This document shows positions 1,850 to 10,810 of a stretch of 64,000 bases of DNA, piece by piece. Origin of the DNA: Escherichia coli (GTDB taxonomy: Bacteria > Pseudomonadota > Gammaproteobacteria > Enterobacterales > Enterobacteriaceae). The notes beneath the pieces are model-generated. The model was not told the origin of the DNA, ran no database searches, and saw nothing but the letters and a program-made list of their open reading frames with translations. How positions within the stretch are numbered: position 1 is the stretch's first letter; each line of letters begins with the position of its first letter. The stretch lies in assembly GCF_016026235.1 (NCBI RefSeq), contig NZ_CP065613.1, one strand, 5' to 3'. A program made the position numbers and the translations under genes.

Positions 1850-3359
1850 TGTCTATGCGTAAACATATTGCTTTCGCCAGTATGTGTATGGGATTATTTA
1901 TTGCTCAGCTTGATATTCAAATTGTATCGTCATCCCTAAATGAAATAGGTGGTGGTTTGTCCGCAGGTAAAGACGAAATGGCCTGGCTTCAGACCAGCTA
2001 TTTAATTGCTGAGATTATTGTTATTCCGCTCTCTGGGTGGCTGTCACGGGTATTTTCCACTCGTTGGCTTTTTACTCTATCCGCGGGAATATTTACTTTA
2101 ATGAGTATCGCGTGTGGACTTGCATGGAATATTCAGATCATGATTTTGTTTCGTGCTTTACAGGGAGCTGCTGGCGCATCCATGATCCCTTTAGTTTTCA
2201 CGACGGCGTTTATTTATTACCAGGGTAAAGAGTTGGGGTTGGCTGCTGCGGTAGTCAGTGCGCTGGCCTCACTGTCACCGACGCTAGGGCCAACTCTGGG
2301 GGGCTGGATCACTGATAACCTCGACTGGCGATGGCTATTTTATATCAATATATTACCTGGCATATATTTAGTTTTGAGTATTCCTTTTCTGGTTAATTTT
2401 GATAAACCTGATCTCTCTTTACTGAAAGTTGCTGATTATCCGAGTATTATCCTGTTGGCCATGACTCTGGGATGTCTGGAATATACCCTTGAAGAAGGAG
2501 CGCGCTGGGGATGGCTGGATGATAATACTATTTTGCTGACATCAGTTCTGGCATTGGTGAGTTTTATTTTATTTGCTGCGCGTACACTTACAATATCCAA
2601 TCCGATAATGGATCTTCATGCTTTTAAGGATAAAAATTTCACTCTGGGATGTTTTTTTTCTTTTTCTGGAGGGGTTGGGATATTCTCTACTGTATATTTA
2701 ATACCTGTGTTTTTGGGGCAGATTCGCGGATTAAATGCCGAAGAGATAGGTTTTGCCGTTTGCACAACAGGTATTTTCCAGTTATTTTCTGTTCCCTTTT
2801 ACTTCTGGTTAAGTAAAAAAATAAATCTGCGATGGCTGTTGATGGCGGGGCTGGGCGGATTTGTGTTTTCAATGTATCTTTTTACCCCTATAACCCACGA
2901 ATGGGGATGGCAGGAATTACTGTTTCCACAGGCAATTAGAGGGATTTCGCAGCAGTTTGCGATGGCCCCATCGTAACATTAACGCTAGGGGGAATTCCAA
3001 AAGAACGGCTGAAGTTAGCCTCTGGTGTATTTAATTTAACACGTAATCTTGGGGGCGCGATTGGTATTGCCCTGTGTGGCTCTATTCTCAATAATCGAAC
3101 TAATTTTCATTTTTCGCGAATGGGTGAAAAAATGGTTTCTGTTCCCCATACGGTGAATGACTTCATTTCCAGAAGTGCTTTATTTTTTAATCGCAGTGGA
3201 AGTGACCAGACATCGGAAATACTGGCTTCAACCAAATTATTGAGTCAATTGATGCTGAGGGAGGCGCAAACTATGGCATTTTCGGATACCTTTCTGCTAA
3301 TCAGTGGTCTGTTATTTATCGCATTTTTGTTGGTTCCTGCTATGAATAAATCATCCTGA
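1846..3359 (+). CDS. EmrB-like MFS (DHA2) efflux transporter, reading frame broken once
   Basis: 376-aa ORF ends at 2976; the C-terminal ~125 aa continue in the -1 frame from 2979 (…LTLGGIPKERL…). Adding one C to the C4 run at 2966..2969 restores a ~504-aa protein. Confidence 0.7.
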
Positions 3360-3553
3360 TCGGAGCCTGTGCTGAATTAAACTCGGGCTAAACTGTTCGA
3401 TACTGCTAACAGGCTAGTATAAAATGCCCCGCCTGCGCAGATACTCACAGGTATGAAGTAGAGTATTGTTTCAATCTGTGAAGGGAACGATGCAGTAAGT
3501 ATGAACAATTAACCCGTCTGAATCACGACGTGTGAAGGTGCATAGGAGGTTAC

Positions 3554-4117
3554 ATGAACCTTGACGACAAATCGCTGTTTCTTGACGCCATGGAAGATGT
3601 CCAGCCGCTGAAACGAGCTACAGATGTCCACTGGCATCCAACGCGTAACCAACGTGCGCCGCAGCGTATCGACACGCTGCAGCTTGATAATTTCCTCACC
3701 ACCGGATTTCTCGACATCATCCCGCTAAGTCAGCCGCTGGAGTTTCGGCGGGAAGGGTTGCAACATGGGGTGCTGGATAAGCTGCGCAGTGGTAAATATC
3801 CGCAACAGGCGAGCCTGAATCTTTTGCGCCAGCCGGTGGAAGAGTGCCGCAAAATGGTGTTCAGTTTCATTCAACAAGCCCTGGCGGATGGTTTGCGTAA
3901 TGTGCTGATTATTCATGGTAAAGGGCGGGAAGATAAATCGCATGCCAATATTGTCCGCAGCTATGTGGCGCGCTGGCTGACCGAATTTGATGATGTTCAG
4001 GCATATTGCACCGCGCTACCGCATCATGGCGGCAGCGGGGCGTGTTACGTCGCACTACGTAAAACGGCGCAGGCGAAGCAAGAAAACTGGGAGCGCCACG
4101 CTAAGCGCAGTCGTTGA
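3554..4117 (+). CDS. smrA: Smr-domain DNA endonuclease SmrA
   Basis: 187-aa ORF with good SD (aggagg); recognised as E. coli SmrA/YdaL. Confidence 0.85.
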   Translation: MNLDDKSLFLDAMEDVQPLKRATDVHWHPTRNQRAPQRIDTLQLDNFLTTGFLDIIPLSQPLEFRREGLQHGVLDKLRSGKYPQQASLNLLRQPVEECRKMVFSFIQQALADGLRNVLIIHGKGREDKSHANIVRSYVARWLTEFDDVQAYCTALPHHGGSGACYVALRKTAQAKQENWERHAKRSR

Positions 4118-5370: not shown

Positions 5371-5603
5371 TGAGATCCCATTATTTTTATCAATTTTTGT
5401 TGCTATCCGATCGCAAAAAAGCCACGTCATATGATCAGATAATTCTGATAATGATAGACGCTATTTAACACTTCACACGGTTTGTATACGGAAAAGCATT
5501 TTGCTTTTTGTATTCAATTTAGACAGAATTTTATTAATCATTTCAGGGTAATGGGGTGATGAGATGTTGCGTAACAGGGCCAGAAGGCTAGACTACAAAA
5601 TAA

Positions 5604-6608
<1,005 letters not shown>

Positions 6609-6654
6609 CAAAAGCAATTTTTCCGGCTATCTGTATACAAAAACGCCGCAAAGT

Positions 6655-6668
6655 TTGAGCGAAGTCAA
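6655..6668 (+). promoter_or_regulatory. FNR box (TTGAG-N4-GTCAA) centred about 42 bp upstream of fnrS
   Basis: Near-consensus FNR half-sites with class II spacing relative to the FnrS 5' end. Confidence 0.5.
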
Positions 6669-6703
6669 TAAACTCTCTACCCATTCAGGGCAATATCTCT
6701 CTT

Positions 6704-6825
6704 GCAGGTGAATGCAACGTCAAGCGATGGGCGTTGCGCTCCATATTGTCTTACTTCCTTTTTTGAATTACTGCATAGCACAATTGATTCGTACGACGCC
6801 GACTTTGATGAGTCGGCTTTTTTTT
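6704..6825 (+). ncRNA. fnrS: FnrS small regulatory RNA
   Basis: Sequence GCAGGTGAATGCAACGTCAAGCGATGGGCG… ending in hairpin GCCGACTTTGATGAGTCGGC plus T8 matches my memory of FnrS; lies between zntB and dbpA as in K-12. Confidence 0.8.
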
Positions 6826-6882
6826 GCCTGTTATTTATCAGCGTCTACCCTTTAAGAGTCCACCCAATGACCGGAGGGAAAT

Positions 6883-7053
6883 ATGACGACACTTATTTAT
6901 TTGCAAATTCCTGTCCCTGAACCGATTCCTGGCGATCCTGTTCCAGTGCCCGATCCGATCCCTCGCCCGCAACCCATGCCTGACCCACCACCCGATGAAG
7001 AACCGATTAAATTGTCGCATCGTGAGCGTAGATCTGCGAGGATACGCGCCTGA
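6883..7053 (+). CDS. Candidate 56-aa proline-rich small protein
   Basis: ATG 7 nt after GGAGGG; sequence MTTLIYLQIPVPEPIPGDPVPVPDPIPRPQPMPDPPPDEEP…; below the ORF-track length cut-off. Confidence 0.35.
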   Translation: MTTLIYLQIPVPEPIPGDPVPVPDPIPRPQPMPDPPPDEEPIKLSHRERRSARIRA

Positions 7054-7085
7054 TGACTTTGCGTCGATGACCACGAGAATAGATT

Positions 7086-8459
7086 GTGACCGCTTTTTCT
7101 ACCCTGAATGTTTTGCCTCCCGCCCAACTCACGAACCTTAATGAGTTGGGTTATTTAACCATGACGCCGGTGCAGGCCGCCGCGCTTCCGGCGATCCTTG
7201 CCGGAAAAGATGTTCGCGTGCAGGCGAAAACTGGCAGCGGCAAAACGGCGGCTTTTGGCCTCGGCTTGTTACAGCAAATTGATGCGTCGCTATTTCAAAC
7301 CCAGGCTTTAGTGCTGTGTCCTACGCGTGAACTGGCGGATCAGGTGGCAGGTGAATTGCGTCGGCTGGCGCGTTTTCTGCCAAATACCAAAATTTTGACG
7401 TTGTGCGGTGGTCAACCGTTCGGTATGCAGCGTGATTCGTTGCAACATGCGCCGCATATTATCGTGGCAACGCCGGGGCGTTTGCTGGATCACCTGCAAA
7501 AAGGCACGGTATCACTGGATGCGTTGAATACGCTGGTGATGGATGAGGCCGACCGCATGCTGGATATGGGATTTAGCGATGCCATTGATGATGTCATCCG
7601 TTTTGCGCCAGCATCTCGACAGACGCTTCTGTTTTCGGCAACCTGGCCGGAAGCCATCGCTGCAATCAGCGGACGAGTGCAACGCGATCCTTTGGCGATT
7701 GAAATTGACTCAACAGATGCTTTGCCACCCATTGAACAACAATTTTATGAGACATCCAGCAAAGGCAAAATTCCTCTGTTGCAACGGTTATTAAGCTTGC
7801 ATCAGCCATCCTCTTGCGTGGTGTTTTGCAATACCAAAAAAGATTGTCAGGCTGTCTGCGACGCGCTGAATGAAGTAGGGCAAAGTGCATTGTCGTTACA
7901 CGGCGATCTGGAGCAACGCGATCGCGATCAGACCCTGGTACGTTTTGCTAACGGTAGCGCCCGTGTACTGGTCGCGACTGATGTTGCTGCGCGTGGTCTG
8001 GATATAAAATCGCTTGAGCTGGTGGTGAACTTTGAGCTGGCGTGGGACCCTGAAGTTCATGTACATCGCATCGGCCGTACAGCTCGTGCAGGAAATAGCG
8101 GTCTGGCGATCAGTTTCTGTGCTCCGGAAGAAGCACAGCGGGCCAATATCATTTCTGACATGTTGCAGATAAAACTTAACTGGCAAACACCGCCAGTTAA
8201 TAGTTCCATTGTGCCGCTGGAAGCAGAAATGGCAACGTTGTGTATCGATGGCGGGAAAAAAGCCAAAATGCGCCCGGGTGATGTATTAGGTGCACTGACA
8301 GGAGATATCGGGCTTGATGGCGCAGATATTGGCAAAATCGCCGTGCATCCGGCGCATGTCTATGTCGCGGTCCGTCAGGCTGTTGCTCATAAAGCATGGA
8401 AACAGTTACAGGGCGGGAAGATTAAAGGAAAAACGTGCCGGGTGCGGTTATTAAAATAA
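7086..8459 (+). CDS. dbpA: ATP-dependent RNA helicase DbpA (DEAD-box)
   Basis: 457 aa; AKTGSGKT Walker A, VMDEAD box, SAT, HRIGRTAR motifs. Confidence 0.9.
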   Translation: MTAFSTLNVLPPAQLTNLNELGYLTMTPVQAAALPAILAGKDVRVQAKTGSGKTAAFGLGLLQQIDASLFQTQALVLCPTRELADQVAGELRRLARFLPNTKILTLCGGQPFGMQRDSLQHAPHIIVATPGRLLDHLQKGTVSLDALNTLVMDEADRMLDMGFSDAIDDVIRFAPASRQTLLFSATWPEAIAAISGRVQRDPLAIEIDSTDALPPIEQQFYETSSKGKIPLLQRLLSLHQPSSCVVFCNTKKDCQAVCDALNEVGQSALSLHGDLEQRDRDQTLVRFANGSARVLVATDVAARGLDIKSLELVVNFELAWDPEVHVHRIGRTARAGNSGLAISFCAPEEAQRANIISDMLQIKLNWQTPPVNSSIVPLEAEMATLCIDGGKKAKMRPGDVLGALTGDIGLDGADIGKIAVHPAHVYVAVRQAVAHKAWKQLQGGKIKGKTCRVRLLK

Positions 8460-9574: not shown

Positions 9575-10810
9575 CTACGATAACCGCGCATTCAACATGG
9601 CTATCTGTTCGTCGTTCATGTCATCAATCCACATACCGTAAATTTCATACACCATTTGCGCAGTTTCATGCCCCATCTGGCTGGCTATAAATGCCGGGTT
9701 CGCTCCTGCCGTCAACAGCCAGCAGGCAAAAGTATGTCGCGTATGGTACGGATTACGGCGGCGAATACCAGCACGTTTTACTGCTGCATTCCATCTCGCA
9801 CCCAAACTGCTTACCGAGTAATAAGGTTTCTGTTTTCCGTTACACATCCTGGGCATGAAAACAAAATGCAGTTTTTGCTTTTCGGTTCTGCCGTACTCCC
9901 GATGATAAAAAGTGATTTCGCTTTTGCGATGATGCCCGGTCAGTTTGTATTGCTCCTTCAGTGCTTCAAGAGCTGGCTGTAGTAATGTTACCGTCCGGAT
10001 CCCGGCATTTGTTTTTGGGGGACCGAACATATCAAGTATCGTCAGGTTTCTTCTGACATTCACAATTCCCTTCTCGAAATCCACATCCTCCCACGCCAGA
10101 GCTGCCAGTTCCCCGTGACGAAGCCCGGAGTAAACGGCAAATTTCCACAAGTTTTGGCTCTGTCCTTTTTCACTTTCCATTAATGCATTGAATTCTGTTT
10201 TAGATAACGGGTCAGGCTTTATTCTGTTTCGCTGTAATTTTTTTACTCCTTCAAATGGTTTGGTTGATATAAATCCCGACTGATACGCAAAACGTAACAG
10301 CGAACAGAGCAGGGCGATATAGTTATCAACTGTGCGCACGGTTCTTCCTTTTTTGTTGGATCTTGGATTATCCAGGTAAAGCGTTTCTCCATGCAGCAGT
10401 TCATTCCGGTAGTTTAAGATATCGCTATAACGAATATATGATATCGGGGTACTTTCACAAATTATTATTCTGAGTGTTTTTAATTGTGATTTCGTTTTCT
10501 TCATTGTGTTTGTTGTTAACTCTGTCTCTTTAATTTTTGTCCAGATATCACAAAGCTCCCCGAACGTTTTTATGACTCTCGTTGTCACCATTTTTGCCCC
10601 AGTGCTGGACTGGGGAAAACGTCTTAAATACTCAAATTCACCGGAGTTTATTTCATGAACTATCAGCGCTCTTAAATTTCCGGCCTTTTTAATATTACTG
10701 TTTGTAATCTCCCAGCCTTTTAATGTTTCCCGACATCGTTTTCCTCGAAACATGAACCAGATGCGAATGTTTCTACCTCTAATCTCGACACCTGTTGGTA
10801 ATTTAGACAT
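9575..10810 (-). CDS. Phage integrase (tyrosine recombinase), IntR-like
   Basis: 411 aa; C-terminal catalytic region (…HTRHTFACWLLTAGANPAFIASQMGHE…YGMW) typical of lambda-family integrases; adjacent to the att site. Confidence 0.85.
   Translation of the reverse strand: MSKLPTGVEIRGRNIRIWFMFRGKRCRETLKGWEITNSNIKKAGNLRALIVHEINSGEFEYLRRFPQSSTGAKMVTTRVIKTFGELCDIWTKIKETELTTNTMKKTKSQLKTLRIIICESTPISYIRYSDILNYRNELLHGETLYLDNPRSNKKGRTVRTVDNYIALLCSLLRFAYQSGFISTKPFEGVKKLQRNRIKPDPLSKTEFNALMESEKGQSQNLWKFAVYSGLRHGELAALAWEDVDFEKGIVNVRRNLTILDMFGPPKTNAGIRTVTLLQPALEALKEQYKLTGHHRKSEITFYHREYGRTEKQKLHFVFMPRMCNGKQKPYYSVSSLGARWNAAVKRAGIRRRNPYHTRHTFACWLLTAGANPAFIASQMGHETAQMVYEIYGMWIDDMNDEQIAMLNARLS

Follow-up and report, generated by a model that had tools for sequence, protein, structure and literature searches.

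Gene organization of the fnrS–dbpA region

The window is the whole stretch of Escherichia coli DNA that was analyzed, 64,000 nucleotides in length, and the subject of this study is a short ORF in it that lies between the sRNA gene fnrS and the helicase gene dbpA. The features of this region are as follows.

6704-6821, plus strand: fnrS sRNA gene (Rfam RF01796, 134.8 bits)
6798-6817, plus strand: fnrS terminator (terminator scan)
6845..6851, plus strand: CTACCCT in the fnrS–ynaL spacer, a 7-nt invariant run
6873..6878, plus strand: Shine-Dalgarno sequence GGAGGG of ynaL, read directly, 4 nt (AAAT) before the ATG
6883..7053, plus strand: ynaL coding sequence (ORF list, RefSeq annotation, Pfam PF23677 and published SPA-tag immunoblot)
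7054..7085, plus strand: ynaL–dbpA spacer, 32 nt, with a weak SD-like GAGA ahead of the dbpA GTG
7086..8459, plus strand: dbpA, encoding the DEAD-box helicase DbpA (457 aa, GTG start; ORF), found 3' of ynaL at every locus examined

The ORF extends from the ATG at 6883 to the TGA at 7051-7053 and consists of 56 codons and a stop; another TGA in the same frame comes directly after it, at 7054-7056. The encoded peptide, MTTLIYLQIPVPEPIPGDPVPVPDPIPRPQPMPDPPPDEEPIKLSHRERRSARIRA, is 56 aa long and contains 16 prolines among its 56 residues (28.6%), which occupy every other position from residue 10 to residue 37, with an additional PPP at residues 35-37. A first-pass annotation of the window had described a proline-rich 56-codon ORF behind GGAGGG, and direct reading of the sequence returned the peptide exactly as it was quoted there; the placement between fnrS and dbpA is likewise borne out by the Rfam match and the dbpA ORF. 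The GGAGGG does precede the ATG, but at a distance of 4 nt, and the spacing of 7 nt originally given is obtained only when counting from the end of GGAG. The ribosome-binding site was correctly called strong, and both GGAGG(G) and the ATG are near-invariant across genera. ORFs of this size are frequent in the window.

Upstream of the Shine-Dalgarno sequence, the CTACCCT run could represent either a -10-like element (TACCCT) or an anti-SD segment that pairs with the GGAGGG of ynaL. This pairing is predicted in Escherichia, Salmonella and some Citrobacter, with GCCTCC used instead in Enterobacter, Lelliottia, Kosakonia and Superficieibacter. No sigma-70 promoter or intrinsic terminator was recognized by a scan of the interval from fnrS to dbpA, and between ynaL and dbpA the scan found neither a sigma-70-like promoter nor an intrinsic terminator. 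Base pairing of FnrS with the ynaL–dbpA leader was considered and rejected, as the duplex energy was equalled or bettered by 92% of shuffles.

Identification of the ORF as ynaL

The ORF at 6883..7053 is the known small-protein gene ynaL, which corresponds to b4743 of E. coli K-12. It had been taken for an unannotated reading frame, which is incorrect: the gene carries the identifiers b4743 / YP_009518775.1 and WP_001625136.1, and the protein has its own Pfam family, PF23677. The MG1655 counterpart lies at 1409308-1409481 and encodes 57 aa with a Cys at the end. In a genome that is 100% identical to the window, a CDS of matching coordinates and length is annotated as WP_001625136.1, "proline-rich small protein YnaL". 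A 601-nt query across the ORF had a match in nearly all complete E. coli genomes (5392 of 5426), and the rows listed label the ORF ynaL, "proline-rich small protein YnaL" or simply "protein YnaL". The Pfam family PF23677, "Protein YnaL-like", matched the peptide with 131.7 bits (E = 8.8e-39) against a gathering score of 27 bits, and the alignment is full-length, with residues 1-56 placed on profile positions 1-56 of 57.

The window carries a minority allele of ynaL that ends in TGA TGA and thus lacks the terminal Cys, and most E. coli ynaL genes end in TGC TAA or TGC TGA and encode a Cys-terminated protein of 57 aa. An exact 61-nt match to the window allele was present in 349 of 5380 genomes, O157:H7 included. 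The peptide of the window has 100% identity to alleles of the WP_001625136.1 type. K-12 YnaL and the product of the window share 56 of the 57 K-12 residues, and both genes lie between fnrS and dbpA; the Shine-Dalgarno sequence of ynaL is GGAGGG in the window and AGAGGG in K-12.

Translation of ynaL has been established experimentally. The first-pass annotation had suggested ribosome profiling or a western blot of a tagged allele, and both have already been published with positive results (PMC6001520). In that work, the chromosomal sORF was SPA-tagged and YnaL protein was observed by immunoblot in MG1655 (VanOrsdel et al. 2018), and YnaL was an unidentified positive of a tetracycline ribosome-profiling screen. 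The same authors noted that ynaL adjoins dbpA and suggested that YnaL functions in connection with its neighbour (PMC6001520). In a later acid-stress Ribo-seq study, ynaL is listed among "previously known sORFs", and fold changes are given for its footprints and its RNA (PMC10746267, supplementary file 7). In the literature searched, no paper assigns a function to YnaL, and the only one that names both ynaL and dbpA notes their adjacency; the text searched from a study that mapped 3' ends in E. coli (PMC7815308) contains none of ynaL, dbpA and fnrS. Therefore, ynaL is not a discovery of the present analysis: it had a name, an annotation, a family and experimental confirmation beforehand.

Distribution and synteny

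A protein search gave 162 matches at E ≤ 0.001, and PF23677 was present in all 120 of the matches listed. The matches that are named by organism come from Escherichia, Salmonella, Citrobacter, Enterobacter and Klebsiella, as well as from Leclercia, Lelliottia, Kosakonia, Superficieibacter and Intestinirhabdus. Genomic context was compared at 27 loci, with one genome per species, together with look-ups in Klebsiella, Kosakonia, Leclercia and Superficieibacter. The order zntB–fnrS–ynaL–dbpA–ttcA, with ttcA on the minus strand, was retained in all of these loci (27 and more, from approximately 12 genera), and dbpA initiation at the loci examined is always at a GTG behind a weak GAGA. The distance from the ynaL stop to the dbpA GTG is 27-32 nt in 26 loci; in Klebsiella, with a ynaL that is longer by 7 codons, the gap is 14 nt. 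A conserved frame in Enterobacteriaceae had been proposed as a check on the ORF, and it is evident in at least 12 genera from the protein search, the alignment and the synteny. Thus ynaL is a real and translated gene for a small protein; it is confined to Enterobacteriaceae and always lies on the dbpA strand, 14-32 nt ahead of the dbpA GTG.

Neither a ynaL-like ORF nor the conserved 3' segment of ynaL (block B, described below) was found ahead of distant dbpA genes, whose products are 60% and 52% identical to DbpA and which lie in other neighbourhoods. Since ynaL does not precede the more distant dbpA genes, it is a clade-restricted addition ahead of dbpA, and the existence of dbpA homologues without ynaL outside the clade indicates that DbpA has no general need of YnaL.

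Protein-level selection on the proline-rich core

In an alignment of 27 proteins, the N-terminal approximately 17 residues of YnaL vary in both sequence and length, and from residue ~18 onward the protein is nearly fixed as DPVPxPDPIPRPQPMPDPPPDEEPIK(L/M)SH...RSARIRA(C). The invariant non-proline residues include R28, Q30, M32, I42 and K43. Two features of the coding sequence are of particular relevance here.

6910..7005, plus strand: acidic P-x-P core, codons 10-41 (selection pattern; AF2 prediction)
6985..6993, plus strand: PPP, codons 35-37, inside DPPPD, present in most lineages

Selection was compared over 14 representative lineages, with the following values for segments of ynaL and for dbpA.

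ynaL core, codons 19-40: pS 0.645, pN 0.098, pN/pS 0.15
dbpA, codons 21-420: pS 0.666, pN 0.069, pN/pS 0.10
ynaL, codons 41-46 (CCG ATT AAA TTG/ATG TCG CAT): pS 0.000, pN 0.047, pN/pS not applicable
ynaL, codons 50-56 (AGA TCT GCG AGG ATA CGC GCC): pS 0.000, pN 0.019, pN/pS not applicable

Each of the core prolines is encoded by 2-5 synonymous codons among the lineages, and an 11-codon deletion allele of ynaL keeps the frame. The acidic P-x-P core (approximately residues 18-43) is conserved as protein, with its synonymous sites saturated, and this protein-level purifying selection is a new result of the present analysis. Because the amino acids of the core are selected and the codons are free, the ORF cannot be without meaning, nor can it be a C-rich element that acts purely as RNA. 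More generally, ynaL is more than a chance ORF, as judged from the pN/pS of 0.15 over 14 lineages, the conserved start codon and Shine-Dalgarno sequence, the Pfam score and the presence in 5392 of 5426 genomes. The codon-level selection agrees with the published evidence of translation.

The PPP inside the core becomes PSP (DPSPD) in E. albertii and in the C. youngae group, and C. amalonaticus has PPQ (DPPQED) in its place. PPP-type motifs are dependent on EF-P, and since PPP is replaced in three lineages, EF-P-specific sensing cannot be the conserved core function of ynaL. A need for EF-P has been described for motifs of the DPPPD class (PMC5021804).

Predicted structure and homology of YnaL

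AF2 prediction based on the family alignment gave an extended YnaL chain without helix or strand, with pLDDT >90 at residues 21-40 and approximately 60-66 at both ends. As far as this model goes, YnaL is compatible with an acidic polyproline-II rod that carries a flexible basic tail. No relatives of YnaL were found among solved structures.

A relationship to TonB was considered and rejected. NCBIfam NF008084 scored 20.5 bits (E = 3.6e-4), far below its cut-off of 315, and only over the Pro-rich stretch, and Pfam TonB_N scored 10.6 bits (E = 0.87) with a cut-off of 33; both matches are compositional. The alternation of X-Pro with acidic residues in the TonB spacer is also seen in YnaL; unlike TonB, however, YnaL possesses neither a membrane anchor nor a C-terminal TonB domain.

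A nucleotide-level constraint at the 3' end of ynaL

The last 16 codons of ynaL differ from the core in that they contain two blocks with no synonymous change, separated by a short variable segment.

7003..7020, plus strand: block A, codons 41-46, CCG ATT AAA TTG TCG CAT, one codon per position in 26 sequences
7021..7029, plus strand: codons 47-49, variable, free in both amino acids and nucleotides, a possible 5' strand of an outer stem
7030..7050, plus strand: block B, codons 50-56, AGA TCT GCG AGG ATA CGC GCC, ultra-conserved, with a 19-nt invariant run

The sole exception to the freezing of block A is a T/A alternation at 7012, and block B includes the rare codons AGA, AGG and ATA. Among codons 41-46 and 50-56, all 9 of the 9 degenerate codons with an invariant amino acid are also invariant as codons, versus 6 of 269 in dbpA. 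When 27 sequences were aligned over 5 kb, the 19-nt run at 7031-7049 was the longest invariant run outside fnrS, whose own runs are 55, 22 and 20 nt, and no invariant run above 9 nt occurs in zntB, dbpA or ttcA. This run of 19-20 nt equals the FnrS sRNA in its invariance. Block B occurs once in the window and is shared without any change by Klebsiella, Leclercia and Superficieibacter; in Kosakonia there is a single change, GCG to GAG, which falls on the N of the GNRA tetraloop described below and keeps the GNRA loop. The frozen nucleotides lie 36-83 nt from the dbpA start. The two blocks of zero synonymous change are also a new result: they place a nucleotide constraint on top of the coding constraint and point to an element of the dbpA leader that is conserved as RNA.

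A hairpin in block B is weakly supported. The putative structure pairs AUCU (7032-7035) with GGAU (7040-7043) around GCGA (7036-7039), a GNRA loop, and recurs in single-sequence folds. An outer stem could form between codons 47-49 and the invariant ACGCGCC, with a mean energy of -9.1 kcal/mol versus -7.5 kcal/mol for shuffled spacers. In this candidate stem, 75.6% of the cells are paired versus 26-48% with the partner slid, and the covariation score of 0.100 versus 0.071 was reached by 1 of 500 shuffles; double changes occur at one pair only, and the stem is absent in several Enterobacter species. A strong structure at the ynaL–dbpA junction was rejected on the basis of a local z of -1.5, a z of +1.56 over 309 nt, an alifold energy of -11 kcal/mol and a covariation term of -0.3.

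Other origins of the frozen blocks were also considered. A search of 6822-7140 against Rfam 15 gave no family at E up to 10, and within 6000-8000 fnrS was the sole Rfam family at its gathering score. A hand search of blocks A and B for sigma-28, -32, -E and -54 patterns gave nothing convincing. A resemblance to 23S rRNA, with the hairpin 92 region that DbpA binds, or to 16S rRNA was rejected, as was pairing with either, since only non-collinear chance matches of 6-9 nt were obtained (best E = 1.5). An overlapping gene in the +1 frame (ORF 6995-7141, 48 aa) was rejected because it is startless in Salmonella, Silvania and Pseudocitrobacter, is interrupted by a stop in Citrobacter sp. R56 and varies in its ends; the +2 frame is full of stops. 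A YnaL–DbpA fusion by frameshifting was likewise discarded, since gaps of 27, 28, 29, 32 and 14 nt shift the dbpA frame between genera and stops intervene in most of them.

Possible role of ynaL in the expression of dbpA

During 50S assembly, the helicase DbpA acts on 23S rRNA, where it remodels the region of the peptidyl-transferase centre (hairpin 92). To our knowledge, the regulation of dbpA is essentially unstudied. On balance, we lean toward a reading in which ynaL is the upstream cistron of a ynaL–dbpA unit and its translation sets the output of dbpA in cis. Co-transcription of the two genes is suggested by their spacing and synteny, and the proposal involves a further feature of the RNA.

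6900..7027, plus strand: C-rich, G-poor, rut-like RNA tract, with C 0.40-0.42, G 0.18-0.19 and C/G above 2

The C/G ratio of this tract is 1.6-2.3 in 14 of 14 lineages, without third-position bias, and the z of the 309-nt fold (+1.56) means that the RNA is less structured than shuffles. The composition is a by-product of the CCN codons. In the proposed mechanism, ribosomes that translate ynaL would cover the C-rich tract of approximately 130 nt and thereby keep Rho from terminating before dbpA. Ribosomes that end at the ynaL stop could then reach the adjacent weak start of dbpA (GUG behind GAGA), and the invariant block B region may form part of this ynaL–dbpA junction. The demanding core, with its alternating prolines and, in most lineages, DPPPD, may render ynaL translation responsive to EF-P, proline supply or peptidyl-transferase performance, and the output of dbpA would follow the efficiency of ynaL translation. 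The YnaL peptide may act in trans as well.

In favor of this cis reading are the fixed adjacency of the two genes at a short distance, the weak dbpA start, the lack of a terminator or promoter between them in the scan, the C-rich tract and the frozen block at the junction. It draws on the principles of polarity, termination-reinitiation and EF-P-dependent coupling (Elgamal et al. 2016, PMC5021804). In that study, loss of EF-P in the presence of rut sites caused an approximately 30-fold drop in the expression of polyproline mRNA, which was reversed by the Rho inhibitor Psu. The ynaL–dbpA arrangement resembles that system in having a polyproline motif that needs EF-P and a C-rich RNA that could load Rho if translation lags. 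Several findings count against the cis reading. No sigma-70-like promoter was found by the scan of the fnrS–dbpA interval, and selection for C in excess of that imposed by coding for proline was not seen. The replacement of PPP in three lineages, the weak support for the block B hairpin and the dbpA homologues that lack ynaL outside the clade weigh against it as well. In addition, a pure coupling device would not need invariant R28, Q30, M32, I42 and K43, and SPA-tagged YnaL accumulates detectably, which fits a trans-acting protein.

Leader ORFs rich in proline codons are exemplified by mgtL (of mgtA) and mgtP (of mgtCBR) in Salmonella. Like these, ynaL is a short proline-rich ORF upstream of, and on the same strand as, another gene, although regulation of that gene is only proposed in the case of ynaL. 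In contrast to mgtL and mgtP, ynaL is 3-4 times longer, the whole peptide is conserved rather than the Pro codons alone, and no alternative stem-loops or terminator are evident. Consecutive proline codons, whose conservation would be expected of a leader of the mgtL/mgtP type, are not retained throughout the ynaL lineages.

A mainly trans-acting YnaL is possible, though we hold it to be the less probable account. According to this proposal, the protein would combine an acidic polyproline-II rod with a basic tail (KLSHRERRSARIRA) and bind a partner such as DbpA, a 50S assembly intermediate or RNA; its place before dbpA would reflect a shared function instead of cis regulation, and the freezing of the 3' nucleotides would stem from a separate element of the dbpA leader. 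Purifying selection on the protein as strong as that on dbpA, the invariance of particular non-proline residues, the accumulation of the tagged protein and the confidently extended AF2 core (pLDDT >90 at residues 21-40) are all in its favor, as is the proposal of a function tied to the adjacent gene (PMC6001520). On the other hand, YnaL shows no domain and has neither a structurally solved relative nor a homologue beyond the clade, and pS = 0 in the last 16 codons is left unexplained. Docking was modeled in AF2 with a DbpA-(G4S)6-YnaL fusion and an alignment of 12 genome-paired rows and 86 diverse DbpA homologues. No sign of docking was obtained: pLDDT was >90 for DbpA and 41-73 for YnaL, versus 59-93 for YnaL alone, which is a weak test, as only pLDDT was returned. 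A trans role is compatible with the same data as the cis model, and the two roles may coexist.

SecM, TnaC and SpeFL are ribosome-arrest peptides, and the motif of SecM is IRAGP. The possibility that ynaL is an arrest-peptide leader of this type, or of the mgtL/mgtP type, appears quite unlikely. Here the ribosome would stall at DPPPD or at RIRA/stop, and the stalled ribosome would remodel the leader RNA or block Rho and thereby switch dbpA on or off. The division of YnaL into a variable N-terminal part of ~17 residues and a conserved C-terminal part of ~40 residues, which is approximately the length of the tunnel, accords with such a role, and this segment, an R-A motif near its end and the position upstream of a gene are features shared with SecM, TnaC and SpeFL. 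DPPPD in most lineages, a C-terminal SARIRA that adjoins the stop and is reminiscent of SecM IRAGP, the location directly before the weak-start gene dbpA and the two invariant RNA blocks around a variable spacer could be read in the same sense. However, PPP is gone in three lineages, and the spacing between RIRA and the stop is not constant (A-stop, C-stop, CL, CRL, CYR and CRSSVL; 0 to 7 residues after SARIRA), so that YnaL, unlike SecM and TnaC, has no motif at a fixed distance from a stall codon or stop. YnaL also differs from these arrest peptides in lacking an A-site proline and sequence homology to them. Neither a terminator nor a convincing switch between alternative structures was seen (consensus fold -11 kcal/mol, covariation -0.3), and a length of 56-64 aa with stable detection is atypical of a leader peptide.

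It is highly improbable that the reading frame is incidental and that selection acts on a C-rich (rut) or other non-coding RNA of the dbpA leader, with the peptide as a mere by-product: a C/G of ~2 over 130 nt in all lineages and a 3' end frozen in nucleotides would suit this idea, but the third positions of the core vary freely, even to G, while the amino acids are kept (pN/pS 0.15), the start codon and Shine-Dalgarno sequence are conserved, the deletion allele is in frame and the YnaL protein has been detected (PMC6001520).

Implications

The cis reading can be extended to a more specific proposal, in which the 3' third of ynaL has a dual use, as coding sequence for ...PIKLSH...RSARIRA and as a previously undescribed RNA element, invariant throughout the clade, that controls dbpA (blocks A and B, possibly with the GNRA-capped hairpin), and the proline-rich cistron senses peptidyl-transferase performance, EF-P or proline and thereby tunes DbpA. 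We regard this extension as speculative and rather unlikely. If it were true, the quality of the ribosomes would feed back on the synthesis of a factor that assembles them. YnaL is among the better-conserved uncharacterized small proteins of E. coli, and its gene is fixed ahead of dbpA, the gene for a ribosome-assembly helicase.

Nucleotide-level constraint within ynaL

Two blocks within the ynaL coding sequence (window 6883-7053, plus strand), at window positions 7003-7020 and 7030-7050 (codons 41-46 and 50-56), carry zero synonymous substitutions across the 14 or more lineages compared, whereas synonymous sites in dbpA and the remainder of ynaL are saturated (pS ~0.65). A 19-20-nt run in one of these blocks, which includes the rare codons AGA, AGG and ATA, is as invariant as the FnrS sRNA.

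A second reading frame covers this region and was considered as a gene:

6995-7141, plus strand, 48-aa ORF in the +1 frame, starting inside ynaL and spanning the dbpA start

This candidate was rejected, as its start codon is missing in several genera and a stop interrupts it in Citrobacter sp. R56. The apparent conservation of its RLNCRI and DLRGYAP stretches is only an echo of the frozen nucleotides.

The dbpA start region

Two further features were noted where ynaL meets dbpA:

7075-7090, small predicted stem CACGA/UUGUG, which would enclose the dbpA GUG start and GAGA
L033 (a Klebsiella locus) 2650-4083, extended DbpA gene call of 477 aa versus 457 aa, with 20 additional residues upstream

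Most genera keep the predicted stem, and its A-U to G-U changes are all one-sided; it is too weak to call. The extension of the Klebsiella DbpA reaches into the 3' end of ynaL in this one gene call, and in Klebsiella, as in Silvania and Pseudocitrobacter, an open dbpA frame continues 5' of the GTG; the 477-aa call is probably an annotation artefact.

Allelic variation and gene neighborhood

In the window, ynaL ends in a TGA TGA double stop (7051-7056), giving a 56-aa YnaL, while K-12 reads TGC TAA at these positions and encodes 57 aa with Cys as the last residue; the SD is GGAGGG in the window versus AGAGGG in K-12. The exact 61-nt ynaL allele of the window is present in 349 of 5380 E. coli genomes, O157:H7 strains among them. 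A natural deletion allele was also found:

L010 (a locus of E. coli strain E69) 2489-2641, 46-aa ynaL allele with 11 codons lost in frame

The deletion falls within the P-x-P repeats, and the frame is intact despite repeat slippage.

Elsewhere in the gene row and its flank lie the following:

5564-5611, plus strand, ynaN, 15-codon ORF (RefSeq "protein YnaN", b4773)
9575-10810, minus strand, intR, tyrosine integrase, with Rac-type prophage genes continuing onward

The YnaN ORF, a second small upstream ORF of this gene row, ends 13 nt upstream of the zntB start. Directly after ttcA, intR is accompanied by xisR, a Gam-family host-nuclease inhibitor and a RecE family exonuclease. No E. coli genome covered at least 80% of a 5-kb query, and the prophage is therefore mosaic in content.

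The fnrS-ynaL spacer

Between fnrS and ynaL, CTACCCT (6845-6851) is invariant. It could supply a -10-like TACCCT, 16 nt past the TTGCCT (6825-6830) at the end of the fnrS terminator. Alternatively, CTACCCT could instead act as an anti-SD for the ynaL GGAGGG. In Enterobacter, Lelliottia, Kosakonia and Superficieibacter, GCCTCC lies directly 3' of the terminator, with predicted pairing to the SD. For CTACCCT to serve as an anti-SD, transcripts would have to read through the fnrS terminator.
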